Assembly (NCBI GenBank): GCA_964480435.1
Contig: CAYZSS010000011.1
Span: forward strand, 1,524 to 28,792
Direction of reading: 5' to 3'
DNA: 27,269 bases
DNA from: an uncultured archaeon
Lineage (GTDB): Archaea; Iainarchaeota; Iainarchaeia; Iainarchaeales; 0-14-0-20-30-16
A model generated the notes under the pieces. The model saw only the letters and a program-made list of their open reading frames with translations. It had not been told where the DNA came from and searched no databases. Every line of letters starts with the position of its first letter. Position 1 is the first letter of the stretch. Below are positions 8,597-27,269 of this stretch, in pieces. The translations under genes and the position numbers were made by a program.

Positions 8597-8643
8597 AGAA
8601 ACAATTAAGGGATAAAGATTAAATAATTTTTATTTCATATTAT

Positions 8644-9783
8644 TTACTTTTTATTGATAAGAGAATTATAAACTTCTAATAATTCATCAGTTTTATTTTC
8701 TATGGACATTTCTTTTGCTCTTTCTAGAGCTCCCTTTTGTTTTTTTAAATATATTTTATTATTTTTTAATAATATTAATGTTTTTTTCGCAAAATCATTA
8801 ATGTTGTTTTTTGAAAGGAACCCCCCTTTTTCTTCTTTCATTACATCTATTACCCCATATGCTTTTATTGCTACAGCTGGCTTACCTGTGCTCATTGCTT
8901 CAAGTAAAACTAACCCTTGTGTATCTGTTAAGGACGCAAATGTAAAAATATCACTTGCTGCATAAGCGTCTGCAAGATCGCGTTTTGTTAAGAATCCAGT
9001 AAATATAACTTTATCTTTTAGCTTTTCTTTTTTGCATAATTGTTTTAAATAGTTTTTTGCAACTCCGTCTCCCACAATAGCTAATTTTACATTAGGGTAA
9101 GAATTAAGAATGATTTTTAATGTTTTTATTAAAAATGAAATGTTTTTTTCATGCCCTACTCTTCCAACAAAAAGAAGAAGTTTCTCGTTTTTTAGGTTAT
9201 ATTTTTTGCGGAATCTACTTGCAACTCCATCTTTGAATTCATCTGTTTTTATACCGGTGGGTAACACAACAATTTTAGATTTTACTCCATAATCTCGAAG
9301 AATTTTTTTACTTTGTGGACTAGGTGCTAAAGTAATATCGCAGGAACCATAGAAATTTTTAATTATTCTCGTTGCAATTTTTTGTAATAATTTGGTAAAT
9401 ATTTTATAATATCCTGGAACGTAGTCTACAAATTGGGTGTGGTAGGTTCCAACTACTGGTATATTTAATTTTTTGGCTTGCTTTTGAGCATTTTGACCCA
9501 CAGTAAAAAAAGAATGCAAATGAACAATATCAAATTTTTCTTTTTTGAAAATCTTATTGTTTGCTGTTATGGGGAATGCTAGTCTATATCCTGCGCCATA
9601 AGGCACTTTGTGGGACTTTAGTCTAATAATATCTTTTTCTGAGTCCTTATAATGTGGGTATCTTGGGCAAATAACATATACTTGGTGCCCTCTTTTTTCT
9701 AATTCATTTTTAAAACTTCTAATAGAGGTTGAGGCTCCATCAATTGAAGGGTAATAAGCATCACATACAAAACAAATCTTCAT
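8644..9783 (-). CDS. Glycosyltransferase, GT4/group 1 family
   Basis: N-terminal KICFVCDAYYPSIDGASTS and C-terminal E-x7-E-like region FASLTDTQGLVLLEAMSTGKPAVA. Confidence 0.85.
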   Translation of the reverse strand: MKICFVCDAYYPSIDGASTSIRSFKNELEKRGHQVYVICPRYPHYKDSEKDIIRLKSHKVPYGAGYRLAFPITANNKIFKKEKFDIVHLHSFFTVGQNAQKQAKKLNIPVVGTYHTQFVDYVPGYYKIFTKLLQKIATRIIKNFYGSCDITLAPSPQSKKILRDYGVKSKIVVLPTGIKTDEFKDGVASRFRKKYNLKNEKLLLFVGRVGHEKNISFLIKTLKIILNSYPNVKLAIVGDGVAKNYLKQLCKKEKLKDKVIFTGFLTKRDLADAYAASDIFTFASLTDTQGLVLLEAMSTGKPAVAIKAYGVIDVMKEEKGGFLSKNNINDFAKKTLILLKNNKIYLKKQKGALERAKEMSIENKTDELLEVYNSLINKK

Positions 9784-10888: not shown

Positions 10889-10989
10889 AACGAGTAGGGA
10901 ACAATTTGCTTTGGTTATGTATGTTATTTTTGTAGACATTTTTTTATAAAATATAACAGAAGTATCAGGTTCCCTCGCCTTACCAGTTT

Positions 10990-11889
10990 CTACTTGCAAA
11001 ATACATGTACCTTGTTGTCTTCATCAATGTAAACTGTTTTCTCTGCCTGAGAAACTAAACATCCCGGGATATCGTCTAGTTGGTGTGCAGATTTTATGCA
11101 TCCTTCTCTATCTAGTAAATTTAAAGCCAGTTTTTTACTGGTTGGGCTTAGTTTTGTTCCTACCCATCTTTCTGAAAATGGTAATCCTAATCTTTCTTCA
11201 ACTTCCTTTAGAATCTCTCTTCCTGCAGGATTTCTAGTTTGTTTTCCTGTTAAGAAATAAATGCTGTTAAATCCAGCTTCTTTTACTATTCCACTTCCTG
11301 TGGTAGCAAATGGTTCTATTGCGTAAATCTTATCTACTCCAAGTGTTGAAGGGTCATTAGTATTAATGTTTGGGATGCTTTTTCCTGCATGTAAATCAAA
11401 TTCATCAATGGTGTGTCCTGTTAAATTTCTTATGGGTTTGAATCCAAAAGAAACTATTTCGTTTTCAATTATTTCTCCTATTTTTCCTATTTTTGAGTCT
11501 TTTTTATTTTTTACAATATAATCACTTGCTTTCTCTAGAGCTGATTCGCTTGCTTTAACAAGTTTTGAATTCTTTCCTGTTAAATCTATTGTAAATGCTC
11601 CATCTACTGTGAACCCATTTGAATGAGCCCCGATATCAACTTTTACTAGTTCTTTTCCGAATTTTTCAGTAGAATAACTTAGTGGAGAATAATGTGCTGC
11701 TGAGTTATCTCTGGACAAATTCACAGGGAATGCAATGTCAGCATGCTTTCTAATTTCTGCTTCGATTTTTTCAGCAGCATCAAGAATGGAGTTCCCTTCT
11801 TTAACCTCTTTTTCAGCAACTTTCTTTGCTTCAATCCATGCTTTGTTTGCAATTGTTAATTCTTTTAATATATCTATTTCTATATCCAT
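10990..11889 (-). CDS. map: Methionine aminopeptidase, archaeal type 2
   Basis: The pita-bread fold metal-ligand regions are present: VDIGAHSNGFTVDGAFT, GHTID, YAIEPFATTG and SQAEKT. ATG 11889 is preceded by AAGGTGA; the track ORF starts at the upstream GTG 11898. Confidence 0.88.
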   Translation of the reverse strand: MDIEIDILKELTIANKAWIEAKKVAEKEVKEGNSILDAAEKIEAEIRKHADIAFPVNLSRDNSAAHYSPLSYSTEKFGKELVKVDIGAHSNGFTVDGAFTIDLTGKNSKLVKASESALEKASDYIVKNKKDSKIGKIGEIIENEIVSFGFKPIRNLTGHTIDEFDLHAGKSIPNINTNDPSTLGVDKIYAIEPFATTGSGIVKEAGFNSIYFLTGKQTRNPAGREILKEVEERLGLPFSERWVGTKLSPTSKKLALNLLDREGCIKSAHQLDDIPGCLVSQAEKTVYIDEDNKVHVFCK

Positions 11890-11894
11890 TTTGT

Positions 11895-12656
11895 TCACCT
11901 TGGCTTAATCCTGTCTCTAAATAATTTGTTATGTTTTGGAAGTAATTCTCCTTTTTTTCTTGCTAAGTTTCTTTCTGCCCACTCTCTATGTAATTTTTTA
12001 CTTACTTCTCTTGCATCAATATTACTTGGTAGTATTCCCCCTTTTAGGAATGTTTGAATATACTGTCTTAACTGCCTTCTATATTCTGCATTACATTTTG
12101 CCTCTTGTGATAACCCAAAAAAATCAAAAAGTGGGGGTAATAGCCCCACAACAGTAAATTCTTTTTTTGTAGCAATATTTCTTATTAATTTAACTACAAA
12201 TACTCTCCAGTTTTCTTTAATTGCTTGTGAAAATTCTGCTAATTCTCTTTCTCTTCCTCTAACTCCTTGAATTGCATTTAATATTACAACTGTTTTCCCA
12301 TCTCTTGGCCATAGATAGAAATTAAAAGTCGCGATTCTTTTCCCATTCGGGGCTATTATTTCATGCTGGAATGGAGCATCAACATGTACTCCCCCTGTGG
12401 ATGCTTTTATTTCATGGCCCATGATTTTTTGATTTATGTTAATTGGTGATGGAATATTTAGTTTGGCTAACTTTATCTTTTCTTGTAGAGGTAATCCTTC
12501 AGGTAATATCATTATAAATGCCATGGCTCTTGCAGCATCACGAACAGTTTCAAAGTTATCAAATACTGTTGATGCTGTTTCTGGGCTTTGTGATTCATTT
12601 AGAATATAATGTCCGATGAACCGCTCTCTTAACCGACTCCGATCTATTTTTTGCAT
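11895..12656 (-). CDS. Hypothetical protein, Arg-rich, between polB and map; family unknown (faint VirK/YbjX DUF535-like core, unverified)
   Basis: Uninterrupted 253-aa ORF. It starts 14 nt after the polB stop, and its stop overlaps the map SD. No motif can be named with certainty. Confidence 0.6.
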   Translation of the reverse strand: MQKIDRSRLRERFIGHYILNESQSPETASTVFDNFETVRDAARAMAFIMILPEGLPLQEKIKLAKLNIPSPININQKIMGHEIKASTGGVHVDAPFQHEIIAPNGKRIATFNFYLWPRDGKTVVILNAIQGVRGRERELAEFSQAIKENWRVFVVKLIRNIATKKEFTVVGLLPPLFDFFGLSQEAKCNAEYRRQLRQYIQTFLKGGILPSNIDAREVSKKLHREWAERNLARKKGELLPKHNKLFRDRIKPR

Positions 12657-12670
12657 ATCTTAGCACCAAA

Positions 12671-15022
12671 TTAAAATAATTTCTTTTGTTTTGTTGTGTC
12701 CAGTAGTTCATCCTTGCTATATCCCAGCTGCTCTATTAATGGAACTACTGCAGGCAGAACTTGGTTATTAATATAATAATCTTCGTCGTAATTATTTTCT
12801 TTTACATACTGTTCTAATTCTGCTTTATCTGAAATTGTTTTTCCATCTTTTGTAATTATGAAGTTTAGTACTGTGCCTGTTTTTATTATGTGCCCCTTTC
12901 TCTCTGCTTTCTTTGCGGCTGAAACATGTGGAGAAATATTATTATATTTATTTATCGGTTTTGTGATTTTTGAAGATAAAACCAAATCTTCTTTGCTTAC
13001 TTTGTGCTCTTTTAATTTTCTAATTGTTTCTTTGATAATTTTTACTGCTTTTTCCAGGTTTCCCTCGTTAAGAATAATTTCTAAAACTTCTTTTTGTAGT
13101 TTTTTTGCAATGTTGCTCCAGTCCCTACGCACAAATTCAAAGCCTACAATTTTTAACGTGCCTTCATCATCTATTAGAGCGTATCTTTTTTTTGCACCAA
13201 CATTCTCTGCTTTTTTTGATACAAATAACCCTCTTTTGTAATATCCATCTAAAGATAACTTGATTTCTCCAGGTAATGATTTATTTGTTTTTGTTAGGAA
13301 AGATTCAACATCTGACCTGTTTTTGTAAATTAAAAATGCACTATCTGTATCTGAATAAATAACTCTTAATCCTGCTTTTTCAGCAGATTCACAAATGCTT
13401 TTTACATATTCTTGAGAGTATGCTACTGTTGATCTTGCGCACTCTAAACAATACCATCTTGCTCTTGGATATGCTAAATATCCATAGAAGCTAGCTAGTA
13501 GTCTTTTCAAACTCCACTGTCTAGCAAATAAAACATCGCGTTTTGGTTTATCTGCTTTTAACATTTCAGTTTTTATTTTCATTCTTTTGTCCATTATTTC
13601 TTTTATTATTAGAGGTAATGTTGCTTTTGTTTCTAAATTAAATTTATCTTTTGTGGGACTAATAACAAACTTTTTTCCTGGTGCATTAAAGCTTTCCGGA
13701 GAAATATTGTGAGTAATTATTATGGATGGGTGTAGTGACCTAAAATCGATTACAGCTATATTCTCGTAAATCCCTGGTTCAGGTTCTTTTACATAGCCTC
13801 CAATAAAAGACTTTTCACCTCTTTCCCATACTACGTCTCCAATTGGTTTTTTAGGAATAAGCTTTTTTTCTTTTGCATATTCGAACATAATAACGGACTC
13901 GATCATATTGCTTGTTGCCATTCTTATGGTGTCTTGTATTGTTCTGTGTATTGTTTTTGATAATTCCATAAACATAAGCAAATATTTTTCTCCAAGTTCA
14001 TATGTTGCTTTGGCGTCATCTAAATTATACTCAAATAATTTATTTCTTTTTTCTATATCTTCCCATAATTCTGGTATCTCGGAATATTCTATATCTATTT
14101 TGTCTGTTCCAATTAATTCTTCATAAGCAGTAGTTAAATCTAATTTAACTAGATCAATACTCCCTATTCTTGAAAGATAAGCAATTACCTTGTATACATC
14201 TATGTGCTGAATCCCTGAAGTATATGCTGTTTTGCCTTGGCTTGATTTGCGAATTATTGGTTTAAGGTATTTTCCTAAATTTAATCCGTATTCTTTTGCT
14301 CTTAGAGAAATTATCGGAAGATCGAAATTATCTCCATTATAAGTATAAATACAATCATATTCGTTTAGTTTTTCTATAATTTTTGCAATCATATCTTTTT
14401 CGTCTATGCAAAGTTCAAAATCTGCATTGTGCTCCTGTTGTTCTCTGTAACTATATGTTTTTTTGTGATTTTTTGCATATAATGAGATTGATAAAATCTG
14501 ACACTCTAAAATGTTTTTCTCGTTAAAAGTAGTTTCTATATCTAAGGCACAACACTTTGGAAAAAAAATAGTGTCTTTTTCTTTAAATTCTAGCCCTGAT
14601 TCTTTTTCATGTATTTCGTAATAATTAAGGGGGGTAATTTGCTTGTCAATAATATATCTTTGATCATAAGGGATATCATAATCGTGTTTGCTTACAAATC
14701 CATTGAATGTTTTTATTGTGTGTCTTAATTCTGTTAATTGGGTTGTATTTTGGAAAATTAATTTATATATTGGTTTTTTATCATGCTTTTCTATTTCATA
14801 TTTTAGAAACGCATTTTTGTTTTCAATAAGTGATTTTTCAAAGGATTTTGGGTTGTTTGTTTTTACATAAAAATAAGGCCTAAAATCTGAGTCTGATATA
14901 ATTTTTTTGTTTATTCCATCTGTGATACAAACACTGATGATAGACTCATTGTGCCCATTGTTTTCATAAAAAACATCTAATATGTGCCCTGTAATAATGG
15001 ACTTTGTCTTCTTATCAACCAT
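12671..15022 (-). CDS. polB: Family B DNA polymerase
   Basis: Exo I ALDIETT, Exo II YNGDNFDLP, Exo III YNLDDA, motif A DFRSLHPSIIITHN, motif B KRLLASFYGY, motif C YSDTDS. Confidence 0.95.
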   Translation of the reverse strand: MVDKKTKSIITGHILDVFYENNGHNESIISVCITDGINKKIISDSDFRPYFYVKTNNPKSFEKSLIENKNAFLKYEIEKHDKKPIYKLIFQNTTQLTELRHTIKTFNGFVSKHDYDIPYDQRYIIDKQITPLNYYEIHEKESGLEFKEKDTIFFPKCCALDIETTFNEKNILECQILSISLYAKNHKKTYSYREQQEHNADFELCIDEKDMIAKIIEKLNEYDCIYTYNGDNFDLPIISLRAKEYGLNLGKYLKPIIRKSSQGKTAYTSGIQHIDVYKVIAYLSRIGSIDLVKLDLTTAYEELIGTDKIDIEYSEIPELWEDIEKRNKLFEYNLDDAKATYELGEKYLLMFMELSKTIHRTIQDTIRMATSNMIESVIMFEYAKEKKLIPKKPIGDVVWERGEKSFIGGYVKEPEPGIYENIAVIDFRSLHPSIIITHNISPESFNAPGKKFVISPTKDKFNLETKATLPLIIKEIMDKRMKIKTEMLKADKPKRDVLFARQWSLKRLLASFYGYLAYPRARWYCLECARSTVAYSQEYVKSICESAEKAGLRVIYSDTDSAFLIYKNRSDVESFLTKTNKSLPGEIKLSLDGYYKRGLFVSKKAENVGAKKRYALIDDEGTLKIVGFEFVRRDWSNIAKKLQKEVLEIILNEGNLEKAVKIIKETIRKLKEHKVSKEDLVLSSKITKPINKYNNISPHVSAAKKAERKGHIIKTGTVLNFIITKDGKTISDKAELEQYVKENNYDEDYYINNQVLPAVVPLIEQLGYSKDELLDTTKQKKLF

Positions 15023-15050
15023 AATTGCACCCTATAAGACTTAATAACAG

Positions 15051-15069
15051 TAAATATATTTATATATAT
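15051..15069. promoter_or_regulatory. Divergent TATA-rich promoter region between polB (-) and the coiled-coil gene (+)
   Basis: AAATATATTTATATATATT lies in the 77-nt gap, about 30 nt from each start codon. Confidence 0.45.
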
Positions 15070-15099
15070 TCGGGTATTACTTATATCAAAGGGATTCTT

Positions 15100-15507
15100 A
15101 TGGTGGAGATTGTTCAAAATAGCGCAGAATTAAAGGCTTTGAACACTACTGTTATGCTTCTTTCTCAAAAAATGGCTTATATTGTAAGAAATGAGAAAAT
15201 ACTTAGTAAAAATATCCTGATTTTAAATGAAAAAATAAATAAACTTTCAGAAAAATCTTCTGTAAAATCAGGGGATTTTGGTGTTGATTCTGAAGTTACT
15301 GATAGCCTTAGCTCGAAAATAACTGAATTATATGAAAAACAGAAAGCGTTTAAGCAGGATCTTGAATATATAAGGGCAAGTATAGATGGGTTAAAAGAAT
15401 CATTTGTTACTAAAGCAGAATTACAAGAATTAAAATATATTATTGATACAATAAATCCATTAGAATTTGTTACCTATCAACAATTAAAAGATCTAATAAA
15501 AAAATGA
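15100..15507 (+). CDS. Hypothetical coiled-coil protein (135 aa)
   Basis: Heptad-rich sequence (LNEKINKLSEK, ITELYEKQKAFKQDLEYIRASIDGLKE). ATG 15100 was chosen because the track ORF begins at a TTG inside the promoter. Confidence 0.6.
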   Translation: MVEIVQNSAELKALNTTVMLLSQKMAYIVRNEKILSKNILILNEKINKLSEKSSVKSGDFGVDSEVTDSLSSKITELYEKQKAFKQDLEYIRASIDGLKESFVTKAELQELKYIIDTINPLEFVTYQQLKDLIKK

Positions 15508-15550
15508 TTTTATGAACAAGTTTGAATTTATGCTCAAAATCCAAGAAACC

Positions 15551-15701
15551 ATTTTGCATATCGCAAAATGTTTCAGGGTCTAACATATTTTGTTTTAAAC
15601 AAAATACTGTTTTACGCAAAATATCAAACAGGTGCCAACAAATCAATTTTCAAAAAAGAAAATTGTTTGGGGGTCTGAAGCAATTCTGTATAACACAAAA
15701 T
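15551..15701. promoter_or_regulatory. Array of three 19-bp palindromic operator-like sites ATTYTG-N7-CAAAAT plus one half-site
   Basis: Sites lie at 15551-15569, 15587-15605 and 15683-15701, with a half-site CGCAAAAT at 15614-15621. All sit in the 226-nt gap upstream of the 15734 gene. Confidence 0.45.
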
Positions 15702-15733
15702 TGGCTTCTTACATAAAAGTATGAGATGATTTT

Positions 15734-17086
15734 ATGAAACCTATTTACCTGGCTTTTTTGTTTTTATTTTTGTTATTTAGTTTATCTTTTAGTTTGGATA
15801 TCATGAGTGTAAAACAAAAAGCTTATGACATGCAATTATTAAAAACGGCTAGTTTTGACGGCGTAGATGAAGAAATATCTTTGTCCGAAAATTCAATGGT
15901 TAATCTTTCAGGTAGTGATTTTTGGATAATTTCCGTGTCATCTCCAAATAATGTTGACTATTATAATTATCTTGTTATTAGTGATAAAAAACCAACTGAA
16001 CTGGTTTCTGAGAGCCAATATGAACAAATAATAAAATCAAAAGTTTTTGTTGATTATCTTGCAGGAAAAGAATTGTATTATTCTTCTACTCTTACAAATT
16101 ATTTTTTGAACTTGTCTACTGAATTGGACACAATGAATTATAATATTGATTTATTTGAAAACTCTTTAAAAGATGAAGCTTTGGATATGACTGATATATC
16201 TAATAAAGTAAGCGGCATAAAACAAGAAATATCCGCATTAGAATCAACAGTGAGCAAAGCAGAACAGGAATCAAATGATTTAGATAGTATGCTTATTGCT
16301 TTAAAAAAAGAAATTGCTGGCAATATAAATGAAGATTTGTTTAATTCTGCAAATAGTTTATCTGAAGATTCTAAAGATATTTTGTCAGGGTATAATGGGC
16401 TGGATGCAAAATTACAAATTCTTAAATCCATAACTGCTGATCTAAATATAGATGTTCAGAAAAAATCAATTATATTTAATTTTTTTAAAATGTCTCCGTT
16501 GCTACAAAGTTTTGGAAGCAATAAAGAAGTAATTGATAGCTCTTTTTCTAATGTGCAAAAAGCATATAATCAATCTGCAAATAATTCATTTATTAAGAAA
16601 CTTTCATATGACTGGGCTCAAAGAAAATATAGGGGTGAATTGTTTAGAACTCTTTTCTCTGAAGATAAAGAGATAAAATCAAAAACAAAAAAAAGCACCT
16701 TAGATTTAGCCATAACCGAAATAATATCAAATACTTCTGTGTGGAAAACCCCTGATGCAAAAAAAATCGAATCAGAAAGAGAAGAGTTATATGCGATAGT
16801 AAAAAAAGGGACATATAAAGCAGGGCTAGAAAATTTGGATGATTTGAGAAGCTCTGTTTTGAGTATTTATTTGGCAGGAAAACAAGAGATAACTGTTGAT
16901 GATTCTGCTTCTGCATCGCAAGATAAAAGTAAGCAGTATTTGTATTATGTTCTGTATGCTCTAATTGGGCTGTTTATAATTTTTACTGGCTATAAACTCT
17001 ATAGAAAATATGCAACAAAAGCTAATTCTGATGAAAATGATACTGGGGCAGATGAAGGCGATGATAATACTAATTATGAAATATAA
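15734..17086 (+). CDS. Hypothetical exported, C-terminally membrane-anchored surface protein with a central coiled coil
   Basis: Signal-like N-terminus MKPIYLAFLFLFLLFSLSFSL, C-terminal TM YYVLYALIGLFIIFTGYKLY, then the acidic tail DENDTGADEGDDNTNYEI. Confidence 0.7.
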   Translation: MKPIYLAFLFLFLLFSLSFSLDIMSVKQKAYDMQLLKTASFDGVDEEISLSENSMVNLSGSDFWIISVSSPNNVDYYNYLVISDKKPTELVSESQYEQIIKSKVFVDYLAGKELYYSSTLTNYFLNLSTELDTMNYNIDLFENSLKDEALDMTDISNKVSGIKQEISALESTVSKAEQESNDLDSMLIALKKEIAGNINEDLFNSANSLSEDSKDILSGYNGLDAKLQILKSITADLNIDVQKKSIIFNFFKMSPLLQSFGSNKEVIDSSFSNVQKAYNQSANNSFIKKLSYDWAQRKYRGELFRTLFSEDKEIKSKTKKSTLDLAITEIISNTSVWKTPDAKKIESEREELYAIVKKGTYKAGLENLDDLRSSVLSIYLAGKQEITVDDSASASQDKSKQYLYYVLYALIGLFIIFTGYKLYRKYATKANSDENDTGADEGDDNTNYEI

Positions 17087-17155
17087 TCTTTTGTAGATTT
17101 TGTTACTCTTGCCTGGATAAAAATATTTAGGTTGTTGAATTTTTTAATGGCTTTA

Positions 17156-17341
17156 TTATATTCGAGAAACAAACTGTGTTTTTTTCATATACTCATCTTT
17201 ACAAGCTTCACAGCAGAATCGTCTTCCATAAACACCTGCTCCTGAATCTTGAATAACTTTCCTACAATTCATACAGGTATACTGTATTGTTGATGAACCG
17301 CCTAATCCACCTCTATTTTTTACGTTTTTTAGTACATCCAT
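17156..17341 (-). CDS. Small FCS/TRASH-type zinc-ribbon protein (61 aa)
   Basis: C-MN-C ... FCCEAC, the same C-x2-C...FC(S/C)xxC pattern seen in L24e. Confidence 0.55.
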   Translation of the reverse strand: MDVLKNVKNRGGLGGSSTIQYTCMNCRKVIQDSGAGVYGRRFCCEACKDEYMKKTQFVSRI

Positions 17342-17618
17342 ATTTTCACCCTCTTGACTTTTTGATATTTTTATTTAAATTAAAATCTGTTGATGTAATA
17401 CATACTGTGGGGGGCTATAAATATTTTGTTAATGATTATAGGTTGTCAAAATTAACTTGTCACCCTTTCCTTGGGTTTGGTTTGTCTTTGATTTATACAT
17501 TATTTGGTACTAACTTTTTGGGTTCTTCTTTTTGCATCGTGGGCTTTTTGTTTTAAACTCTTCTTTTCTCCTATCTGATTATTGAAAAAGATATATATCT
17601 TCCTATTTCATATATGTA

Positions 17619-18845
17619 ATGCGAGAACATATTTCTAAATTTTCACTGTTTTTAGCTGTTATTTCATCGGTAATAGGGCTTGGGCTTATTTGGAGATTTC
17701 CTTACTTGATGGGGGGTAGTGGTGGCTCTGCATTTTTATTTTTGTATTTGTTTGCAGTAATTGTTCTTGGGGTACCGTTAATATTTTTTGAACTTTATTT
17801 GGGCCAAAAGTATAAAACTACTATTATTTGTTTGTTTAGAGAAAAACTAAAGAAGAAATGGTCTGTGATTGTGCCTGGTTTTTTGTTACTAGTTTCTTTT
17901 GGTATTTTGACCTATTATTCTGTTGTAACTTCTTGGACATTGGGTTATGCAATTATGTTACCCTTCGGATATCATACTTTTAGTTCTTATCTTGGAAGTT
18001 CATTAATGTATATTGCTTTTTTCCTAACTTTATTTTTGCTTTACTTTGTAGTGAGGCTTGGATTAAATAAAGGAATAGACAAACTTAACAAAATCGCTGC
18101 TACTTTTTTTGTAATATTTTTAATTGTTCTGTTGTTCTTTGCAATAAAATCCCTTGGCTTTATAACAGCAATAAAATATTTTTTTAATTTTGATTATTCT
18201 CTAATTAATTTTAACACAATTGTAATGGCTTTTGGTCATGCTTTGTTTTCTTTGTCTTTGGGGTTGGGAATACTTTTAACTTTTTCAAGTTATTCTGATA
18301 AGGAGAACCTTAATCCAACAATTTATGGTGTTGTTATAATTAATATACTTGTATCTCTTATAATTGGGGTAATAATATACGCATTTTTATTTTCTTTTGG
18401 GTTAAGTGAAACGGTAGGCCCTAGCCTGATTTTTAATGTGCTGCCTCTGGTTTTTCAAAATTATCTTTTATTTGGTTGTTTGTTTTTTGTTCTTGTTTTT
18501 TTAGCGGGTTTTACTTCTGTGATTTCTTTATTTGAACTAATAATCTCTTCACTTGTGGACTATTTTAAAATAAAAAGAAAAAAAATAGACTTGTTTTTTA
18601 TCTGTCTTCTGGCATTATTCTCTTTGATTCCTTTGCTTTGTCCTGATTCTATAGAAACATTGGATGCTATCTTTGGTTCCTACTTAACTATTTTTGGGGC
18701 TTTTTTATTTTTGCTTTCTTTTTTGTTGTTTGCTAAATGGTTTTCGCCAGTAAAAAACAGATTATATAAGATTTACTATATATTATTGTATGTAGATTTA
18801 GTAATTTTACTAATTTTGTTAATTATTTCAATTTTTATTTGGTGA
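17619..18845 (+). CDS. Sodium:neurotransmitter symporter (SNF/NSS, LeuT-fold) family transporter
   Basis: TM1 signature GLGLIWRFPYLMGGSGGSAFLFLYLFAVIVLGVPLIFFELYLGQ; multi-pass hydrophobic protein. Confidence 0.85.
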   Translation: MREHISKFSLFLAVISSVIGLGLIWRFPYLMGGSGGSAFLFLYLFAVIVLGVPLIFFELYLGQKYKTTIICLFREKLKKKWSVIVPGFLLLVSFGILTYYSVVTSWTLGYAIMLPFGYHTFSSYLGSSLMYIAFFLTLFLLYFVVRLGLNKGIDKLNKIAATFFVIFLIVLLFFAIKSLGFITAIKYFFNFDYSLINFNTIVMAFGHALFSLSLGLGILLTFSSYSDKENLNPTIYGVVIINILVSLIIGVIIYAFLFSFGLSETVGPSLIFNVLPLVFQNYLLFGCLFFVLVFLAGFTSVISLFELIISSLVDYFKIKRKKIDLFFICLLALFSLIPLLCPDSIETLDAIFGSYLTIFGAFLFLLSFLLFAKWFSPVKNRLYKIYYILLYVDLVILLILLIISIFIW

Positions 18846-18850
18846 CATTA

Positions 18851-19909
18851 ATGCAAAACATTTTGGGGAGAGTATTGGCAGAAGAACTTTATGGTCTTAG
18901 TGCCCTTCTTAGTTCAAAATATGAAACCAATCTTAGCAGGGTTATTGAATTAATTTTTTCTACAATTAAAGATGTAGATTATGTGGGGATATATCTTCTT
19001 GATAAAGATGTTTTAATTAATTTAGCAAGTGAGTCAGTATCAAAAAAAGAAAAGGAAGAGGATGAGGATATTGATCTTAATCAAATTAATCCCGAAGTAT
19101 ATTATATTACAAAAGCAATAACAAAAAAATTGTTTATCTCATTTTATCCGGAAAAAGATAAGAATATTGCATATTACTATGATTTTGTACCGTATAATTT
19201 TGCATATTCAAAAAAAATTAAAGATAAAAAGTTTGAACAAAGCACAATGTTTATTCCTCTTATTTTTAATAGCTCTGTGATTGGTTTGATAAAAATTTCA
19301 GGGAAAGATTTGCTCCTTAATAAATTATCTAAAAAAACAAAAACAACTGATTCAATCTTATCTACTGCAATATATTTAGCATCTATTTCTAGGTTTTTGG
19401 CTTCAATTTTAGATAAACAATTGGACCCACTAACAAAGGTATCTAACCGTAGGTCTTTTGAAATTGCTTTTAGTGATAGAGTAGAAGAATATAATAAAAA
19501 AAAGGCTCCATTTTCATTGCTGATTCTAGATATTGATTTTTTTAAGAAAGTAAATGATACGCATGGCCATCTTGCTGGAGACAATGTTTTAAGAAAGCTT
19601 TCAAGTATTCTTTTGGAAAATCTACGCTCGTCCACTGGTAAAAACTTGGATCTTATTTGCAGGTGGGGTGGAGAAGAATTTATTATTCTTCTGGGTAGCT
19701 CTGATTTAGAAGCAGCAAAAGTATTTGCTGAGCGCCTGCGTAAATCTGTAGAAAATGCTGAATTCTCTACAGGAAAAATAACAATTAGTGTTGGAGTGGT
19801 GGGGGCAAAAGAACTTAGTGAAGTAACTCCGGACTTAATGGTTTCTCTTGCAGACGAAAGATTGTATAAAGCGAAAGATGCAGGACGAAATAGAATTGTT
19901 GCAAAATAA
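18851..19909 (+). CDS. GGDEF-domain diguanylate cyclase with an uncharacterised N-terminal region
   Basis: DPLTKVSNRRSF, LDIDFFKKVNDTHGHLAGDNVL and RWGGEEF (19667-19681), followed by LYKAKDAGRNR. The ATG lies 6 nt after the transporter stop. Confidence 0.9.
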   Translation: MQNILGRVLAEELYGLSALLSSKYETNLSRVIELIFSTIKDVDYVGIYLLDKDVLINLASESVSKKEKEEDEDIDLNQINPEVYYITKAITKKLFISFYPEKDKNIAYYYDFVPYNFAYSKKIKDKKFEQSTMFIPLIFNSSVIGLIKISGKDLLLNKLSKKTKTTDSILSTAIYLASISRFLASILDKQLDPLTKVSNRRSFEIAFSDRVEEYNKKKAPFSLLILDIDFFKKVNDTHGHLAGDNVLRKLSSILLENLRSSTGKNLDLICRWGGEEFIILLGSSDLEAAKVFAERLRKSVENAEFSTGKITISVGVVGAKELSEVTPDLMVSLADERLYKAKDAGRNRIVAK

Positions 19910-20031
19910 TTTTTAAATTCCTTTTTTTATTTAAATAAAAAATAAACTATATATATTTGTTATTTAGATATATATTTTAGTTATTATATATAGTGGGACA
20001 CAATAACCAGATCTAATTAAAAAAAGCAGAA

Positions 20032-20043
20032 AACCTTTATAAA
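20032..20043 (+). promoter_or_regulatory. rRNA operon promoter (BRE/TATA) AACCTTTATAAA
   Basis: Strong TATA about 230 nt upstream of the 16S gene. The identical 12-mer recurs at 26106-26117. A second TATA-rich stretch plus ATTATATATAGTGGG at 19983-19997 may be an upstream tandem promoter. Confidence 0.55.
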
Positions 20044-20168
20044 TGTTTGCCATATAAAGATATTTTATAAAAAATTAACATAGCAAAATGTTTTGCTGTG
20101 ACTTTTTTGTGGGTTTTCTCAATTTTTGAGAACCATAACATGATTACCTAAGATTTTTTAGGTAGGAT

Positions 20169-20180
20169 GTAGGTTGTTAT
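20169..20180 (+). other. 5' strand of the 16S processing helix (pairs with 21778-21789)
   Basis: GTAGGTTGTTAT is perfectly complementary to ATAACAACCTAC, which directly abuts the tRNA-Ala 5' end. Confidence 0.6.
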
Positions 20181-20267
20181 TAAGAACGATGCAAGATACA
20201 AAATCAATATCTGTGTAAGATAATAATAAAGCCAATTCTTGAAAATAATAATTGCGACTAATTTTAG

Positions 20268-21751
<1,484 letters not shown>

Positions 21752-21789
21752 TCTGAAAAAATATCTTGTTGTTTATTATAACAACCTAC

Positions 21790-21966
21790 GGGCTCATAGC
21801 TCAATTGGGAGAGCGCTGCCCTTGCATCATTATAGGATTAGGGGGATGGTTTGCAAGGATAAGGGTTATCAAGCGAAAGCGAAGATAGCCTAAGTTTTGG
21901 CAGACCGTGCCTTTTTCTAAAAGGCTGGTAAGGCAGAGGCTGCGGGTTCAATTCCCGCTGAGTCCA
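21790..21966 (+). tRNA. tRNA-Ala(UGC) with a 104-nt intron at the canonical 37/38 position; CCA not encoded
   Basis: Acceptor GGGCTCA/TGAGTCC with the G3:U70 Ala identity pair. D arm GCTC-AATTGGGA-GAGC, anticodon stem CTGCC/GGCAG, loop CTTGCA|intron|A, T arm GCGGG-TTCAATT-CCCGC. Confidence 0.9.
21827..21930 (+). other. tRNA-Ala intron (104 nt)
   Basis: It is bounded by anticodon-loop nt 37 and 38. It contains TGCAAGG complementary to the anticodon region CCTTGCA, a GCGAAAGC tetraloop hairpin, and the GCCTTTTTCTAAAAGGC hairpin (21909-21925). Confidence 0.75.
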
Positions 21967-22085
21967 TTGATGCTTTAATTTATTAAGGCATAAAATGGAC
22001 TTTCTTTAGCGAGCTATGTTTGTTAGAATAAGATTTTTTATTCTAGCGTAACTAGTGATATTCTTAATATATAATATCACATAGA

Positions 22086-22106
22086 GTTAGCATAGGTAAG
22101 TAAGTG
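22086..22106 (+). other. 5' strand of the 23S processing helix (21/21 complementary to 25807-25827)
   Basis: GTTAGCATAGGTAAGTAAGTG pairs with CACTTACTTACCTATGCTAAC. Confidence 0.75.
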
Positions 22107-24067
22107 TTAAGAAAACCCTAGTAAGCCGTCTGGTGGATGACTAGGTTCGAGAGCCGAAGAAGGGCGTGGCAAGCTGCGAAAAGTTCTGGCGAGGTGCATG
22201 CGACCTTTGAACCGGAAATACCCGAATTACTCCGAAAGGAGAGGACACGCAGGGAATTGAAGCATCTTAGTACCTGCAGGAAAAGAAAGCAAACGCGATG
22301 CCCCTAGTACTGGCGAAGGAAAAGGGCAGAAGACAAACTGAATCCCTGTAAGAAATTATAGGGAGATGTGGTGAGGTCTGGTTAGGGTCCTATTTTCTTA
22401 AGATGAAGACTTCTGGAAAGAAGCGCCAAAGAGGGTGATAGCCCCGTAATTATAAAGAAAAAGGATCTGACAGATACCGCGAGTAATACGCATTGGCATT
22501 TGCGTATGAACACGGGGGTGACCAACCCCTAATCTTAAACATTCTCTCGAGACCGATAGCGAACGAGTACCGTGAGGGAAAGTTGAAAAGTACCCTTGGC
22601 AGGGAGTTAAAAGCACCTGAAATCAGACGGTAATAGGCGGACATGGCATGAAAGGTGGAGGACTGAAGGAAACGAAGTCCTCTGTACAGTGTTGTGTCGT
22701 CCGTCACGAAGCACGGGCCAGGGAATTTATATTTGTGGCGAGCTTAAGAGGTTAAACCTCGTAGGCGTAGGGAAACCAAGTTGCCGCAACTTTTGTGAGG
22801 GCAAGGATGCTAATCCGTCTTTAGTCACAGGTATCAGACCTGAAGCCAAGTGATTTACTCCTGGGCAGGATGAAACCCTTTTTCAAAGGGGTGGAGGTCC
22901 GATTCCAGTACTAGACTAACTGTTTGGGTGACCTGGGAGTGGGAGCGATAAACTATGCGAACTTGGTAATAGCAGGCTCCATCTGAAATAGCTCTAAGGC
23001 TAGCTTGACTTGAGATTAATTGGTGGGTAGAGCACTGATCAAAAAGTATTGGGGAGAAATCCTCGGCTTTTTTGTTAAACTTCGAATCGCCAATTGTCGA
23101 AGAAAGTTGGAGTAGGGATCCGGGGGGTAAGCTTCCGGTCCGAAAGGGGAACAACCCTGCGCAAGGTTAAGGTCCCAAAGTATCTGCTAAGTGTAAATAA
23201 AGAGCGTCGTAATTCAAAAACAGAGGGGATGTAAGCTCAGAAGTAGCTATCATTTAAAGAGTGTGTAACAACTCACCTTCCTAGAATTATGGCATCAACA
23301 ATATACGGGGCTAAAGCAGATCACCGATACCTTGCAGATTGTACTGTGTACAAGATCTGGTAAGATGGTGTCCATATAGGGCAGAAGTAAGGGCGTGAGT
23401 TCTTATGGACCTGTATGGAATATGGATCCTGGTGGTAGTAATAGCTATGAGAGGTGAGAACCCTCTCCGTCGAAAGGGCTAGGGTTCCTTAGCACTGATC
23501 ATCAGCTAAGGGTTAGTCGGTCCTAACTCCTACCGTAAACCGAGTAGGAGGACAGGGAAACAGGTTCATATTCCTGTACTTAATAGATACGATTTGGTAA
23601 CAATTGACTATCTTTTGACCCATTGGGCTAGGGGGCGTATTCTACTCAGAATATCTAAACCTACTATGAGCTTGGAGAGTTGTAATGACGAGAAGAGCTT
23701 TAAGAGGTAACAGGGCGAAAGCTGCTCTCAAGGCCTGGTGGCCATGAAAAGAAAGATAGTAAGGACTCTATTAAACCGTACCGAGAACCGGGAAAGGTGC
23801 CCCTGGCTGAGAAGGCCAAGACGTATCGGGAGAATCTAATTAAGGGAATTCGGCAAACTAGCTCTGTATCTTTGGTATAAGGAGTGCCTGTTGTTGCGTA
23901 AACAGCAGGTATCATTAACAAGGAGGGCTCGACTGTTTATCAAAAACATAGATCCCTGCGAGTCCGTAAGGATTAGTATAGGGGTCGACTTCTGCTCACT
24001 GCTAGTACGTGAAAACCCTTTTCAAGGGGTCTAAGCGCTAGTAAAGAGCGGGCCTAACTCTGAGGCT

Positions 24068-24797
24068 CAACTAAATAATTATTTGAGAGTTTGGTCTATA
24101 GAAGGTTTGATAAAGTATTACGTTAGCTAAGGGTCTCATTAAACTTAGCTATATGCTGGAAGCCCAAAGCAAAGAACTACTGAGTAAGTGAAAATGTTCA
24201 ATGCGATGAGGGTAATCAGCAGGGAAGCGTGGTGTATATGATTGAAAACTACTATAAAAAAAGAAAACGCTTTTACGATTATGTTGCAGGATTTATTGAT
24301 GGTGAAGCTTCTTTTACAATAAGTGTAAAAAAAGAACCAACAACTAGATTTGGTTATGCTATTGATCCTGAATTTAAGGTTTCGCAATTAAAAAGCAAAA
24401 TAAAAGTTTTAGAATTTGTAAAACAAGCAATTGGTTGTGGAACTATTACTGAAAAATCAGGACAAGAAAATATGGCTGTTCTTGTTGTAAAAAATAGAAA
24501 GCTTATTATTGAAAAGGTAATACCTTTTTTTAGAAAACATAAGCTGATTGTAAAGGAAGAAGAGTTTAATAGATTTGCAAAGGTTGTATTTGCGTTAGAA
24601 AATAAAACACATCAAACTGAAAAAGGATTCATAGAAATTTTGAAATTAGTTTTTCAAGGATTTTCAGATGAAAACAGAAAATATAAGTTTGAGGAAATAG
24701 TAACAACTATGAAACGCCCCTCAGAGACTATACGCTAAGAACCAAAAAATGGTTAAGATATAGTCCAATCCTAGTAGTAATACTAGAAAAATAAAAG
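24068..24797 (+). mobile_element. Group I intron in 23S rRNA (H69/H71 junction, E. coli about 1923-1925), carrying a homing endonuclease gene
   Basis: The exons rejoin as TAACTCTGAGGCT|CTTAAGGTAGCG. The 5' exon ends in U and the intron ends in G. Elements: P TGCTGGAAG 24154-24162, Q AATCAGCAGG 24214-24223, R TCAGAGACTATA 24721-24732, S AAGATATAGTCC 24755-24766, P8 ACCA-aaaaa-TGGT 24741-24753, P9 CTAGTA-gtaa-TACTAG 24771-24786. The boundary has a 1-nt ambiguity (C at 24068 or 24798). Confidence 0.85.
24238..24738 (+). CDS. LAGLIDADG homing endonuclease, single-motif (homodimer-type)
   Basis: One LAGLIDADG motif, YVAGFIDGEASF; about 166 aa from ATG 24238 (the track ORF starts at GTG 24229). 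It lies between intron elements Q and R, and its last codons overlap R. Confidence 0.9.
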   Translation: MIENYYKKRKRFYDYVAGFIDGEASFTISVKKEPTTRFGYAIDPEFKVSQLKSKIKVLEFVKQAIGCGTITEKSGQENMAVLVVKNRKLIIEKVIPFFRKHKLIVKEEEFNRFAKVVFALENKTHQTEKGFIEILKLVFQGFSDENRKYKFEEIVTTMKRPSETIR

Positions 24798-26105
24798 CTT
24801 AAGGTAGCGTAATACCTTGTCGGTTTAATGCCGACTTGCATCAATGGAGTAACGAAGTCCTCGCTGTCCCTAATTAGAACCCGACGAAACAACTGCGTGG
24901 TGAATATGCCACGGAGTCCCAATGGGAGGTGAAGTCCCCATGGAACTTTACCACAATCTGTTGCTGTTTTAGAATTTTCGATGTGAAGCGTAGTTAGGAG
25001 TCTTCGAAGCAATTTCGTCAGGAATTGTGGAGACAAAAAATGGGACACTAACCTTCGAAAATTCTAAGACTCACCCTGAAAAGGGGACACCTGCAGAGTC
25101 GGTGGTTTGGCTGGGGCGGTACTCCCCTGAAAAGGTATCAGGGGAACCCAAAGGTCTGCTCAGGGGTGTTGGAAACATCCTGTCGAGTGCAAAAGCAAAA
25201 GCAGGCTTGACTGTGTTCCGCAAAGCAAGGAATGCAGATTCGAAAGAAGGGTTTAGTGATCGTCAGTACTACTTTGGTGGTAGTCTGGTCTGATAGTGAA
25301 GCTATCCTGGGGGTAACTGGGTTGTCGCGGGCAAGAGTACATATCGACCCCGCGGTTTGCTACCTCGTTGTCGGCTCATGGCATCCTGGCTGTGCATAAG
25401 CAGCCAAGGGTGGAGGGGTTAACTCATTAAAGCCGTACGTGAGCTGGGTTAAGAACGGTGCGAGCCAGTTTGTTTACTATCTGTTGGGACTGTCAATGGT
25501 CTGAAAGGAAGATCTTTCTAGTACGAAAGGAACAAAAGGTCGCGGCCTCTAGTGTACCAGTTGTCCGAGTGGGCAGCGCTGGGTAGCCACGCCGTAGAGG
25601 ATAAAAGCTGAAAGCATCTAAGCTTGAAGCCTTCCTTGAAAATAGACCGTTACTGTATCTTAGGATACACGAAAGCGCCGGTAGAAGACCGGTTTGATAG
25701 GCTGGAAATGTAAGTATCGAGCTTCGGCGAGATATTCAGTTGACCAGTACTAATTGCTTGAGAGGGTAACTTAATAAAATTAAAAAAATCATTCTTTTAG
25801 AATGGTCACTTACTTACCTATGCTAACCTATATTAAGCCTACGGGGTCGAATTACCCCGGAAAATTGTATTACCAAGGTAATACTGGTGCTCCGCACAAG
25901 TCTTATTATAGGAATTGCATTTTTACTTTCCTAATATAAAAATCGCATTTTTTATATTCTGAAATAATTTTGCAGTACACAAGCATACAAAATTACTTTC
26001 TTAATAATAGTCTGTTCAAATTTATGTTATCTCTTTTGAATTGATTTACTGCTTTGCCGTGTTTTCCCTGGGCTTTTTTAAAAAGGCTATTCTACATAAA
26101 AAAGT

Positions 26106-26117
26106 AACCTTTATAAA
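26106..26117 (+). promoter_or_regulatory. Promoter AACCTTTATAAA, identical to the rRNA promoter 12-mer
   Basis: Exact 12-mer match to 20032-20043. The TATA centre lies about 27 nt upstream of 26141. The downstream ATTATATTAGTGGG resembles 19983-19997. Confidence 0.5.
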
Positions 26118-26140
26118 CTTATATTTAGTATATTATATTA

Positions 26141-26349
26141 GTGGGTAACCTTAAATCCTGCTTGCGTGGGATTTGCAGTGAATTAGGTGAGGGTGTGCAT
26201 TTGCGCGTTTCTGACTTCGGTCATGTTGTTTGCCTTATGTTGAGACGGATTTTATCCTTCGTTCTCTGCGCGGTTGAGTTTCCTGGAATATATTCCCGTA
26301 GTCTCAGATATTCTTGTGTCCTCCGCTTTTATCCACTACTGATTTTTTG
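26141..26349 (+). ncRNA. Candidate structured ncRNA of unknown class (about 209 nt)
   Basis: Hand count gives about 46% GC between AT-rich flanks. An rRNA-like promoter sits upstream and a T6 run at 26343-26348. The 5' GTGGGTAA can pair with TTATCCAC (26329-26336). Nested hairpins include TGAC-TTCG-GTCA. Confidence 0.45.
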
Positions 26350-26461
26350 AAATTCATTCACTTTTTCTTTCCTCTTATGTCTACATAAAACTGTGTGATT
26401 TCTCTCGCAAAAATCTACATAATACTGCCTAATTTATATAGTTTGGTTTTGTATTTCTATT

Positions 26462-26635
26462 ATGGCTAAAAAGGTAGTTCCAAATACAAAACATTTAGTG
26501 GAATACTACGATTTGTTAGCAGACGATTATAACTCAAGATGGGTAAACTTTGTAGATAACCAGTATAAAGTAGTAAAACCATTTGCAGAAAAAGTGCATT
26601 CTCAATTTGGGAAAGGTGCATCTCGCTGCGGATGA
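26462..26635 (+). CDS. Small orphan ORF (57 aa), possibly leaderless; might be a truncated methyltransferase N-terminus
   Basis: MAKKVVPNTKHLVEYYDLLADDYNSRW... The TATA AATTTATATA is centred about 26 nt upstream of the ATG. It is not in the ORF track because it is under 60 aa. Confidence 0.35.
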   Translation: MAKKVVPNTKHLVEYYDLLADDYNSRWVNFVDNQYKVVKPFAEKVHSQFGKGASRCG

Positions 26636-26820
26636 AAGAGGCAGGCGAAAAAGAGGTCATGGATAAAACTAATAACCTGAACAGTTCGATTGAACAAACC
26701 TGAGCCTTTCGGAACAGTCCCCGAACTCCTGTTTGACAAGAAACAACTTGCTTGGCCCATCAGAATGGTAATGATATATTGGCATTGTATCTCTATCTTG
26801 TCATAAGCAGGAGGTGTGTT

Positions 26821-27269
26821 ATGCAAGATGATAAAACCGAAGCAGTGAATGAAGAAAAACTTGATTCGGCTGAACCATCAGAGGCTACCTCGACTATCCA
26901 GCAGGAAGTAGAGGAAATCAGGGAAGCTGTTGCCGGGGTTGTAAGCGAGACTTCACTTCCTGATAGGGTGGAATCCCTTCGCTCCAATATCGAGAGCTTA
27001 GGCGAAGAGGTACAAAGCTGGCGAACATGGCGAAAGAACACCTATGTAGAAGCTTTTGAGACCCTGAACAGTCAGGTGACCGAAATACAGGATGAATGGA
27101 ATACTGTATCTGCCAGCATGAAAACCCAGCACGAAAGATTAGAAAATGTCTTGCAATCATTTCCGGGAGTTATAGAAACCTCGACTCTGAAAGCGCTGTC
27201 CCTTCGCGTGACTCACCTTGAACAATTGGTATCGCAATTGTTTCAAGAATCGCAGGCAAAATCCAGTGC
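26821..27269 (+). CDS. Hypothetical acidic coiled-coil protein, 5' partial view (runs off the window)
   Basis: ATG 26821 is preceded by AGGAGGTG (26809-26816). There are 149 codons without a stop up to the window edge. Codon usage is GC-richer (TCG, CTG, GCG, CGC). The minus-strand track ORFs here are its shadows. Confidence 0.7.
   Translation, partial: MQDDKTEAVNEEKLDSAEPSEATSTIQQEVEEIREAVAGVVSETSLPDRVESLRSNIESLGEEVQSWRTWRKNTYVEAFETLNSQVTEIQDEWNTVSASMKTQHERLENVLQSFPGVIETSTLKALSLRVTHLEQLVSQLFQESQAKSS

Follow-up and report, generated by a model that had tools for sequence, protein, structure and literature searches.

A stretch of 27,269 nucleotides (nt) from an uncultured archaeon (contig CAYZSS010000011.1; hereafter the window) carries two adjacent genes on its plus strand, the first for a LeuT-fold membrane protein of the NSS/SNF family (the SNF protein) and the second for a protein that ends in a complete GGDEF domain (the cyclase). 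We consider it likely that they are a true operon of two genes on the chromosome of a DPANN archaeon, a relative of Candidatus Iainarchaeum, and that in this operon the SNF protein is paired with a soluble diguanylate cyclase bearing a GAF-like N-terminal domain. According to the list of open reading frames (ORFs) and their translations, both genes lie where a preliminary description of this DNA had put them, on the plus strand. The stop codon of the SNF gene (TGA, 18843–18845) and the ATG of the cyclase gene (18851) have 5 nt between them, in agreement with the earlier placement of the second start just 3′ of the first stop, and the archaeal rRNA operon described as lying about 360 nt further downstream has its 16S start at 20268, 358 nt from the cyclase stop. 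The features on which the argument draws are as follows.

12671–15022, minus strand: PolB, a family-B DNA polymerase gene (window gene scan)
17591–17598, plus strand: TATA-like box (atatatat), 21–28 nt 5′ of the SNF ATG
17619–18845, plus strand: gene for the NSS/SNF-family LeuT-fold membrane protein, 408 amino acids (aa), about 11–12 hydrophobic segments, degenerate Na1 site
18841–18845, plus strand: Shine-Dalgarno-like GGTGA, overlapping the SNF stop codon and 5 nt 5′ of the cyclase ATG
18851–19909, plus strand: gene for the GGDEF protein, 352 aa, with the complete GGDEF domain at its C-terminal end
18851–19420, plus strand: putative sensor region of the cyclase, residues 1–190, predicted as a GAF-like alpha/beta domain that leads into a long linker helix
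19421–19909, plus strand: GGDEF diguanylate cyclase domain, residues 191–352 (PF00990, TIGR00254 and structure matches)
19640–19651, plus strand: inhibitory-site position KNLD, K264–D267, with a clade-specific insertion of five residues just ahead of it and GGEEF five residues further on
19667–19681, plus strand: GGEEF active-site loop, G273–F277 (direct translation; conservation in 70 aligned sequences)
19910–19928, plus strand: T-rich tract (T5 and T7) directly 3′ of the cyclase stop, read from sequence only
20268–25773, plus strand: archaeal rRNA operon with 16S (20268–21751), tRNA-Ala(UGC) (21790–21966) and 23S (22109–25773)

Archaeal origin and assembly of the locus

Both flanks of the pair had been described as archaeal, and both are. 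Directly downstream lie full archaeal 16S and 23S rRNA genes (Rfam SSU_rRNA_archaea, 1378 bits; LSU_rRNA_archaea, 2418 bits), and the genes upstream include those for TrmB, L7Ae, aIF5B, S6e, aIF2-gamma, a PIN protein, Rpb7/RpoE, S24e, Kae1, and PolB. With archaeal rRNA and information-processing genes on one contig, reproduced independently, the pair belongs to an archaeal chromosome that is DPANN and Iainarchaeota-related. The sister protein P0122 (MDD4983842.1), which NCBI names "GGDEF domain-containing", comes from a metagenome-assembled genome (MAG) of Candidatus Iainarchaeum, DPANN (Nanobdellati), and the 16S of its lineage is 93.9% identical to that of the window.

Two further contigs, L001 and L002, carry the exact GGDEF protein and were assembled independently from other samples. 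The 15-kb L001 is 99.4% identical to the window over 10987–25249 (14.3 kb, from PolB through the pair into the 23S gene), and L002 is 99.98% identical over 16199–21000 (4.8 kb). Because small differences at single nucleotides (SNPs) separate them from the window, they do not stem from the same reads, and thus both junctions of the pair with its surroundings are reproduced. In composition, too, the pair resembles the flanking genes, as had been claimed from its AT-richness: GC content is 0.29–0.31, and GC content at third codon positions (GC3) is 0.20–0.23 against a host range of 0.17–0.27, so that GC3 and synonymous codon use of both genes fall within the host range, but at its edge.

These data bear directly on the possibility of an assembly chimera or contamination, that is, of a bacterial SNF–GGDEF fragment mistakenly fused to archaeal sequence. 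Both GGDEF and SNF are families typical of bacteria, and earlier authors have raised the same worry for archaeal MAGs (Galperin et al. 2018, PMC5847659; Romling 2022, PMC10086821). However, apart from SNP-level differences, the sequence across both junctions is the same in three independent assemblies of different samples, the pair stands beside archaeal 16S in four diverged lineages and wherever a contig is long enough, its composition and codon use are host-like, and bacterial proteins reach at most 50% identity with the GGDEF domain and 37% with the SNF protein. A chimera is thus scarcely credible and effectively refuted already: the locus is archaeal and correctly assembled, with no mis-join to bacterial DNA.

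A complete cyclase domain

The cyclase had been described as intact, and every residue named in support is present and invariant in four lineages. PF00990 matches residues 191–348 over profile positions 3–161 of 161 (E 2.4e-38, 131.9 bits against a cut-off of 23.8), TIGR00254 matches with E 2e-43 (147.9 bits, cut-off 37.4), and at least 47 solved GGDEF structures match the protein, with E down to 8e-35. The protein is therefore assigned to the GGDEF diguanylate cyclases on its profile, its GG(D/E)EF loop with the preceding Arg, its metal, guanine and phosphate residues, and its fold. All the motifs quoted earlier were found, DPLTKVSNRRSF at residues 192–203, LDIDFFKKVNDTHGHLAGDNVL at residues 226–247 and KNLD at residues 264–267. 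The active-site motif RWGGEEF is likewise present, but the interval once given for it, 19667–19681, holds GGEEF only, since RWGGEEF begins at 19661.

Conservation was read from an alignment of 70 GGDEF proteins, made up of the four lineages and 66 further sequences. Invariant in all 70 are D192, D227, D229, K232, N235, D236, H240, D244, R271, G273, G274, E275, E276, and K342, while F277 and R346 are kept in at least 90%, and the whole motif R271-W-G273-G-E-E-F277 is invariant across the four lineages. In PleD, D327 is the metal Asp, N335 and D344 are the guanine Asn/Asp pair, and K442 and R446 the phosphate Lys/Arg; the counterparts in the window, as aligned to a PleD-family protein, are D227/D229, N235, D244, K342, and R346. 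By this alignment, the conserved residues cover the metal-binding Asp, the guanine-reading Asn/Asp, the catalytic loop, and the phosphate-binding Lys/Arg, and every residue known as needed for GTP binding and catalysis is intact in the predicted protein. Hypr enzymes, which make cyclic GMP-AMP (cGAMP), reportedly carry Ser at the guanine-specifying position. Because Asp244 stands there in the window, cyclic di-GMP (c-di-GMP) is the expected product, and Hypr specificity was rejected.

Structure prediction agrees with this assignment. AlphaFold2 (AF2) gave an unusable model from a 4-sequence alignment (predicted local distance difference test, pLDDT, 48), but the 70-sequence alignment raised the mean pLDDT to 85.8, with values of 90–98 for most of residues 200–350. 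In Foldseek comparisons, the modelled GGDEF domain superimposes on solved GGDEF domains of the Protein Data Bank (PDB) with template-modelling (TM) scores of 0.85–0.90 and root-mean-square deviations of 1.3–2.5 Å.

The inhibitory site is where the lineages differ. The replacement of Arg by Lys noted earlier (KNLD) is confined to the window lineage, and the three sister lineages keep RxxD at the same spacing, as RNHD, RGQD, and REQD. By its KNLD, the window protein falls outside the feedback-inhibited subclass, which has RxxD five residues before GG(D/E)EF, while the secondary Arg (AER295) is retained. Relative to a PleD-family protein, the clade has a specific five-residue insertion directly before the inhibitory motif (window 19625–19651, residues 259–267), which reads SSTGK in the window and (G/S)RPGR in the sister lineages, where the Arg of RxxD comes from the inserted segment. 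That three lineages still have RxxD suggests an accumulation of the product in their cells.

An alternative is that the protein does not serve intracellular c-di-GMP signalling, and instead makes another dinucleotide such as cGAMP, acts solely as a nucleotide-binding receptor, or supplies c-di-GMP as an exported cue for host cells or neighbours. It would fit with the finding of no c-di-GMP-degrading enzyme or receptor nearby and with the mostly host-associated life of DPANN archaea, and a precedent exists in Dictyostelia, which gained a cyclase by horizontal transfer and secrete c-di-GMP (PMC10559540). However, Asp244 occupies the guanine-specifying position at which Hypr enzymes have Ser, the intact set of catalytic residues argues against a receptor-only role, and the canonically spaced RxxD of three lineages indicates a product that reaches regulatory concentrations in the cell. 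We therefore judge this alternative improbable.

A diverged N-terminal region

The N-terminal region had been described as bearing no nameable motif, which remains true at the level of sequence profiles. A phmmer search with the N-terminal 190 aa against 1.84 billion representative proteins found no homologue outside the clade, returning the sister lineage and two low-complexity matches only, and no Pfam family matches above threshold. By profile threshold, the region thus falls outside GAF (PF01590/PF13185). Below threshold, GAF_2 appears with E 0.066 in two of the four clade members, and four solved GAF proteins (including 1vhm, 8dgd, and 3ksg) match weakly, with E 0.08–0.8, on the stretches 'dv..vGvYLld.d.Lv' and 's.llvPLv....viG'.

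It is at the level of predicted structure that a name can be proposed. The AF2 model, with pLDDT of about 73–91 over residues 31–190, which make up most of the N-terminal domain, has a six-stranded sheet flanked by helices and then a long helix (165–188) leading into the GGDEF domain. For the full-length protein, which was used in this comparison rather than the N-terminal domain by itself, the best Foldseek match in the PDB is the cyclase Dcsbis (4zmu; E 1e-18, 373 aligned columns), and phytochrome-type PAS-GAF-PHY-GGDEF cyclases come next. In this model, the N-terminal region reads as a highly diverged GAF-like sensor fused to GGDEF.

An NSS partner with a degenerate Na1 site

The upstream gene had been called a LeuT-fold Na+ symporter-family gene, and its family membership stands. 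As with the GGDEF profiles, the SNF profile matches above its cut-off (PF00209, E 6.6e-31, 108 bits against 27), as does NF037979, a sodium-dependent transporter (E 2.4e-26, 92.7 bits against 50), and the solved transporter MhsT (4us3) matches with E 7e-37. The protein retains the GLGxxWRFPY motif of transmembrane segment 1 (TM1) and the FSLSLG motif of the unwound TM6, and its Na2 site is kept as T299 and S300 (LeuT T354 and S355, TM8) in all clade members and in the outgroup.

The Na1 site, in contrast, is degenerate. In place of the Asn that ligates Na1 in LeuT (N27), the window has Leu23 (codon 17685–17687) and the sister lineages have His or Tyr; of the 115 nearest homologues outside the clade, 112 have Asn there. 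At the position of LeuT N286 (codon 242), the clade has Asn or Ser, whereas 106 of the 115 relatives have Asp. In addition, the clade proteins are about 45 aa shorter than their relatives (median 451 aa). The ratio of nonsynonymous to synonymous substitution rates (dN/dS) of the SNF gene is 0.05–0.25. Because such values denote purifying selection, we take the protein to be functional, with a change either in its ion coupling or in its role. Because the Na1 site is degenerate, the SNF partner is no textbook Na+ symporter, and this part of the earlier label has to be qualified.

One possible role is that of a membrane receptor, or 'transceptor', rather than primarily a transporter: the SNF-like protein would bind an external solute and dock to or regulate the soluble cyclase, as a split version of transporter–signalling fusions such as Sd-Amt1 or CbrA. 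This is the main rival within the operon framework. Both canonical Na1-site side chains are lost in the clade (N27 replaced by Leu, His or Tyr; N286 by Asn or Ser), yet Na2 is kept and the protein remains under purifying selection. Every lineage keeps the SNF gene strictly paired with the cyclase gene, while the two nearest outgroup SNF genes whose context was checked, P0135 and P0148, have no GGDEF neighbour, in a context that is bacterial or unclear. Moreover, fused precedents exist, namely Amt-HAMP-GGDEF (PMC11152129; PDB 8qj3, also among the solved structures that match the cyclase) and an SLC5–histidine kinase (PMC7096432). On the other hand, there is no fused homologue and no sign of a physical interaction, the Na1 changes could just as well reflect coupling to one sodium or some other change in coupling, and the remaining transport core looks intact (unwound TM1 and TM6 motifs, Na2 site). 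Overall, we regard a receptor role as a serious possibility but an unlikely one.

Distribution, descent and selection

A search of 5.8 billion proteins returned only three other full-length relatives of the cyclase, at 57–59% identity; all remaining matches cover the GGDEF domain alone, at 50% identity or less. A contig scan with the full protein has bacterial GGDEF domains of 35–47% identity among the matches listed, and the matches listed for a metagenome contig scan with the N-terminal alignment include at least one new short locus (L092) and L007, recovered again.

The coupling of the two genes, which the preliminary description had proposed from their spacing in this one contig, is a constant of the clade. 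Five diverged loci take in the upstream gene, and in each of them, as in every other fetched contig that extends upstream of the cyclase, the SNF gene precedes the cyclase gene by 5–9 nt. In the downstream direction, archaeal 16S follows in every contig that extends far enough: the order SNF–GGDEF–16S recurs in L001, L002, L006, L007, and L090, and L004 has the same linkage with a methyltransferase gene in between. The wider neighbourhood varies, and the SNF–cyclase–rRNA linkage alone is conserved. In the sister lineages L003 (1625–3376) and L006 (181–1929), a sulfatase-family gene lies upstream of the pair on the opposite strand; the gene between cyclase and rRNA operon, for a class I methyltransferase, occurs in L003 (5848–6564) as well as in L004 (1646–2380), and in L090 a class I methyltransferase gene lies just after the rRNA operon (8606–9253).

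Four diverged lineages have 16S identities of 92–96%, and the SNF and cyclase proteins are 57–69% identical between the major lineages and 83–91% within the closest group. Since 16S identity tracks the identity of both proteins, vertical descent is indicated. A neighbour-joining tree of 127 GGDEF domains also shows no nesting in a recent bacterial clade; the archaeal sequences are monophyletic on a long stem, with distances of 0.29–0.32 within the clade against at least 0.50 to any bacterial domain, and their sister in the tree, P0010, comes from a bacterial contig that also carries EAL and chemoreceptor genes. For both genes, dN/dS is 0.04–0.06 in the closest pairs and at most 0.25 in all pairs, which denotes purifying selection. 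The pair is therefore conserved and vertically inherited in at least four lineages, with both of its genes under purifying selection. The absence of a close bacterial relative of the GGDEF domain suggests an old transfer from Bacteria. Most simply, a cyclase of bacterial type entered an ancestor of this archaeal family once, long ago, and has since been passed on vertically as a working gene.

DPANN archaea are known for acquiring genes from bacteria, and the family is of bacterial origin, so one might instead see the two genes as recently acquired passengers without function in the archaeon. However, lineages as far apart as 92% in 16S identity still keep the pair, dN/dS is 0.04–0.25 with intact frames and ameliorated composition, and no integrase, transposase or viral relative was found. 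This reading is already disfavoured, and we hold it to be very improbable. A scan of viral contigs gave no relatives, and gene scans of the window gave no integrase, transposase or other mobile-element genes. An origin in a mobile element was likewise considered and rejected, as there was no evidence of an integrase, a transposase or flanking repeats and the neighbours are housekeeping genes.

Expression signals and proposed mechanism

The TATA-like box upstream of the SNF gene hints at an archaeal promoter, with an mRNA that has a short leader or none, and an AT-alternating box is found at about the same position before the SNF start in all five diverged lineages. At the gene junction, GGTGA is complementary to the 3′ end of the window's own 16S (GGATCACCTCCT), and an equivalent, (A)GGTG or GTGAT, lies 5–9 nt before the cyclase ATG, overlapping or abutting the SNF stop, in all five lineages. 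The T-rich tract after the cyclase stop is plausibly an archaeal oligo-T terminator; its sequence differs between lineages, that is, it is not conserved. These signals fit an archaeal promoter driving one bicistronic mRNA, although the fit is only suggestive.

The operon would then work as follows. Both genes would be transcribed together from the archaeal TATA-type promoter, and the cyclase would be translated from the Shine-Dalgarno-like site at the gene junction. The cyclase may dimerise through its GAF-like domain and long linker helix and would condense two GTP into c-di-GMP, at a rate presumably set by a small ligand of the GAF-like domain, most plausibly the solute that the co-expressed SNF protein handles or senses. 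Product feedback through RxxD would operate in the sister lineages and would probably be weakened in the window lineage, which has KxxD.

Several observations weigh against this operon and its proposed function. A review of 2023 states that no archaeon has ever been found to contain c-di-GMP (PMC10249747). The search for other parts of a c-di-GMP circuit, which covered the window and related contigs, returned none: Pfam finds no EAL, HD-GYP or PilZ domain in the 25 window ORFs, as had been noted earlier, nor in the precomputed Pfam annotations of called genes on related contigs, and Rfam finds no c-di-GMP riboswitch in the 27-kb window or in nine related contigs (L001–L009). The conserved adjacency of the two genes is all that points to a functional link between the SNF protein and the cyclase. 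For the N-terminal domain, the GAF assignment has as its basis a predicted model and sub-threshold sequence matches, and an hhalign comparison of the N-terminal profile with the GAF regions of bacterial GAF-GGDEF proteins was negative (probability 0.1). In a genome of about 70% A+T, the TATA-like and T-rich signals carry little weight. Finally, the phylum-level label of the host derives from the name of one NCBI MAG and a 16S identity of 93.9%.

Nevertheless, a two-gene operon with an active cyclase is the reading that we favour. It could be taken further: the pair might be the core of an archaeal c-di-GMP pathway of new design, in which an NSS solute receptor without Na1 is coupled to a separate soluble GAF-like cyclase, and c-di-GMP acts on a receptor of non-bacterial type or as a cue to the host or neighbouring cells. 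We consider this extension decidedly doubtful. If true, either route would give c-di-GMP its first role as a second messenger in Archaea.

Relation to known systems

The closest solved match in overall plan is Dcsbis (PA2771) of Pseudomonas aeruginosa (PDB 4zmu; PMC4937426), a protein of 341 aa compared with 352 aa, with which the archaeal cyclase, as modelled, shares the arrangement of GAF-type sensor, linker helix, and GGDEF domain. However, the two are only about 25% identical, and the archaeal N-terminal domain lacks sequence homologues outside its clade and stays below the Pfam GAF thresholds. The archaeal host, the SNF gene partner, and the five-residue insertion next to the inhibitory site set it further apart. 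PleD and WspR (PDB 1w25, 3bre) share with it the GGEEF loop, the metal Asp, the guanine Asn and Asp, the phosphate Lys and Arg, and the placing of the inhibitory site, with five residues between it and GGEEF, whereas the archaeal protein lacks a receiver domain and has KNLD in place of RxxD.

Transporter-fold modules coupled to cytoplasmic signalling enzymes are known from Sd-Amt1, in which an ammonium-transporter-like receptor is joined through HAMP to a diguanylate cyclase (PDB 8qj3; PMC11152129), and from CbrA, in which an SLC5-like domain is joined to a histidine kinase (PMC7096432). In contrast, the archaeal parts are separate polypeptides of one operon, the membrane component is of the NSS/LeuT fold, and their coupling is a prediction from conserved adjacency. 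A literature search yielded no precedent for an operon of an NSS protein and a diguanylate cyclase. With the bacterial NSS amino-acid:Na+ symporters MhsT and LeuT (PDB 4us3, 2a65), the SNF protein shares the fold, GLGxxWRFPY, FSLSLG, and the Na2 Thr-Ser, but it has Leu, His or Tyr for the Na1 Asn (N27), and the second Na1 side chain is variable.

GGDEF output domains have been described as essentially absent from archaeal genomes, and bacterial-type regulators in draft archaeal genomes as possible contamination (Galperin et al. 2018, PMC5847659). Braun et al. (2021, PMC8646023) found no c-di-GMP in Haloferax or Sulfolobus and mentioned more than 300 BLAST hits, many of them in Asgard and DPANN MAGs, and Romling (2022, PMC10086821) stated that the presence of GGDEF proteins needs confirmation in archaeal contigs. 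The near-absence of GGDEF from archaea, on which the preliminary description had relied, is thus the published view (PMC5847659, PMC10249747), but it has to be tempered by the DPANN and Asgard hits mentioned in 2021 (PMC8646023) and by the label "GGDEF domain-containing" that NCBI already gives the sister protein. Sequences reported earlier include Methanocella arvoryzae CAJ37382, a Candidatus Micrarchaeum protein with REC and an inactivated GGDEF domain, and the more than 300 Asgard/DPANN MAG hits (PMC5847659, PMC8646023). Their authenticity was left open, with contamination explicitly suspected, whereas the window offers rRNA linkage, independent assemblies, synteny over several lineages, purifying selection, and an intact catalytic domain.

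Accordingly, the kind of enzyme (a GAF-GGDEF cyclase), the existence of archaeal matches, and the NCBI label of the sister protein were already known; what is new is the authenticity and vertical inheritance of the gene, the putative, sequence-orphan sensor domain, and the conserved pairing with a Na1-deficient NSS protein. The locus supplies the confirmation on an archaeal contig that Galperin et al. (2018, PMC5847659) and Romling (2022, PMC10086821) wanted, and it turns a recurring doubt about archaeal GGDEF proteins into a testable case. A soluble cyclase of 352 aa is a concrete small target for asking whether an archaeon makes c-di-GMP, and the role of an NSS protein without Na1-site residues beside a cyclase becomes a tractable question. 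The pair is also an example of a bacterial signalling enzyme that has become a stable part of a reduced DPANN genome.

Other features of the window

Between PolB and the pair, and further upstream, three ORFs look conserved without belonging to a Pfam or NCBIfam family: 11895–12656 (253 aa), 15025–15507 (160 aa), which has weak coiled-coil, Rad50-like matches only, and 15734–17086 (450 aa). At the other end, the last 1.5 kb (25774–27269) holds short ORFs only, and no 5S rRNA gene was found there, after the 23S gene, at Rfam gathering thresholds.

The 23S gene itself (22109–25773) is 3665 nt long compared with a model of 2987 positions, and it contains an ORF (24229–24738) for a LAGLIDADG homing endonuclease (LAGLIDADG_1, E 7e-18) in a low-GC stretch, also present in L001. 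The excess length together with this ORF in a low-GC stretch probably reflects an rRNA intron with a homing endonuclease. Between 16S and 23S, the spacer tRNA (21790–21966, 177 nt; Rfam 54 bits, missed by ARAGORN) can be read as a tRNA-Ala (anticodon TGC) that is interrupted just past the anticodon loop by an intron of about 100 nt, and its version in L007 is shorter, at 108 nt.

The interval that separates the 450-aa gene from the SNF gene holds a 61-aa Cys-rich ORF on the minus strand (17156–17341; CxxC...CCxxC, 'RRFCCEAC'). This ORF has only weak zinc-finger/metallothionein-like Pfam matches (E 0.03–0.06) and is called as a gene in L001 and L002, and L003 has a 61-aa gene of dissimilar sequence at a similar place.

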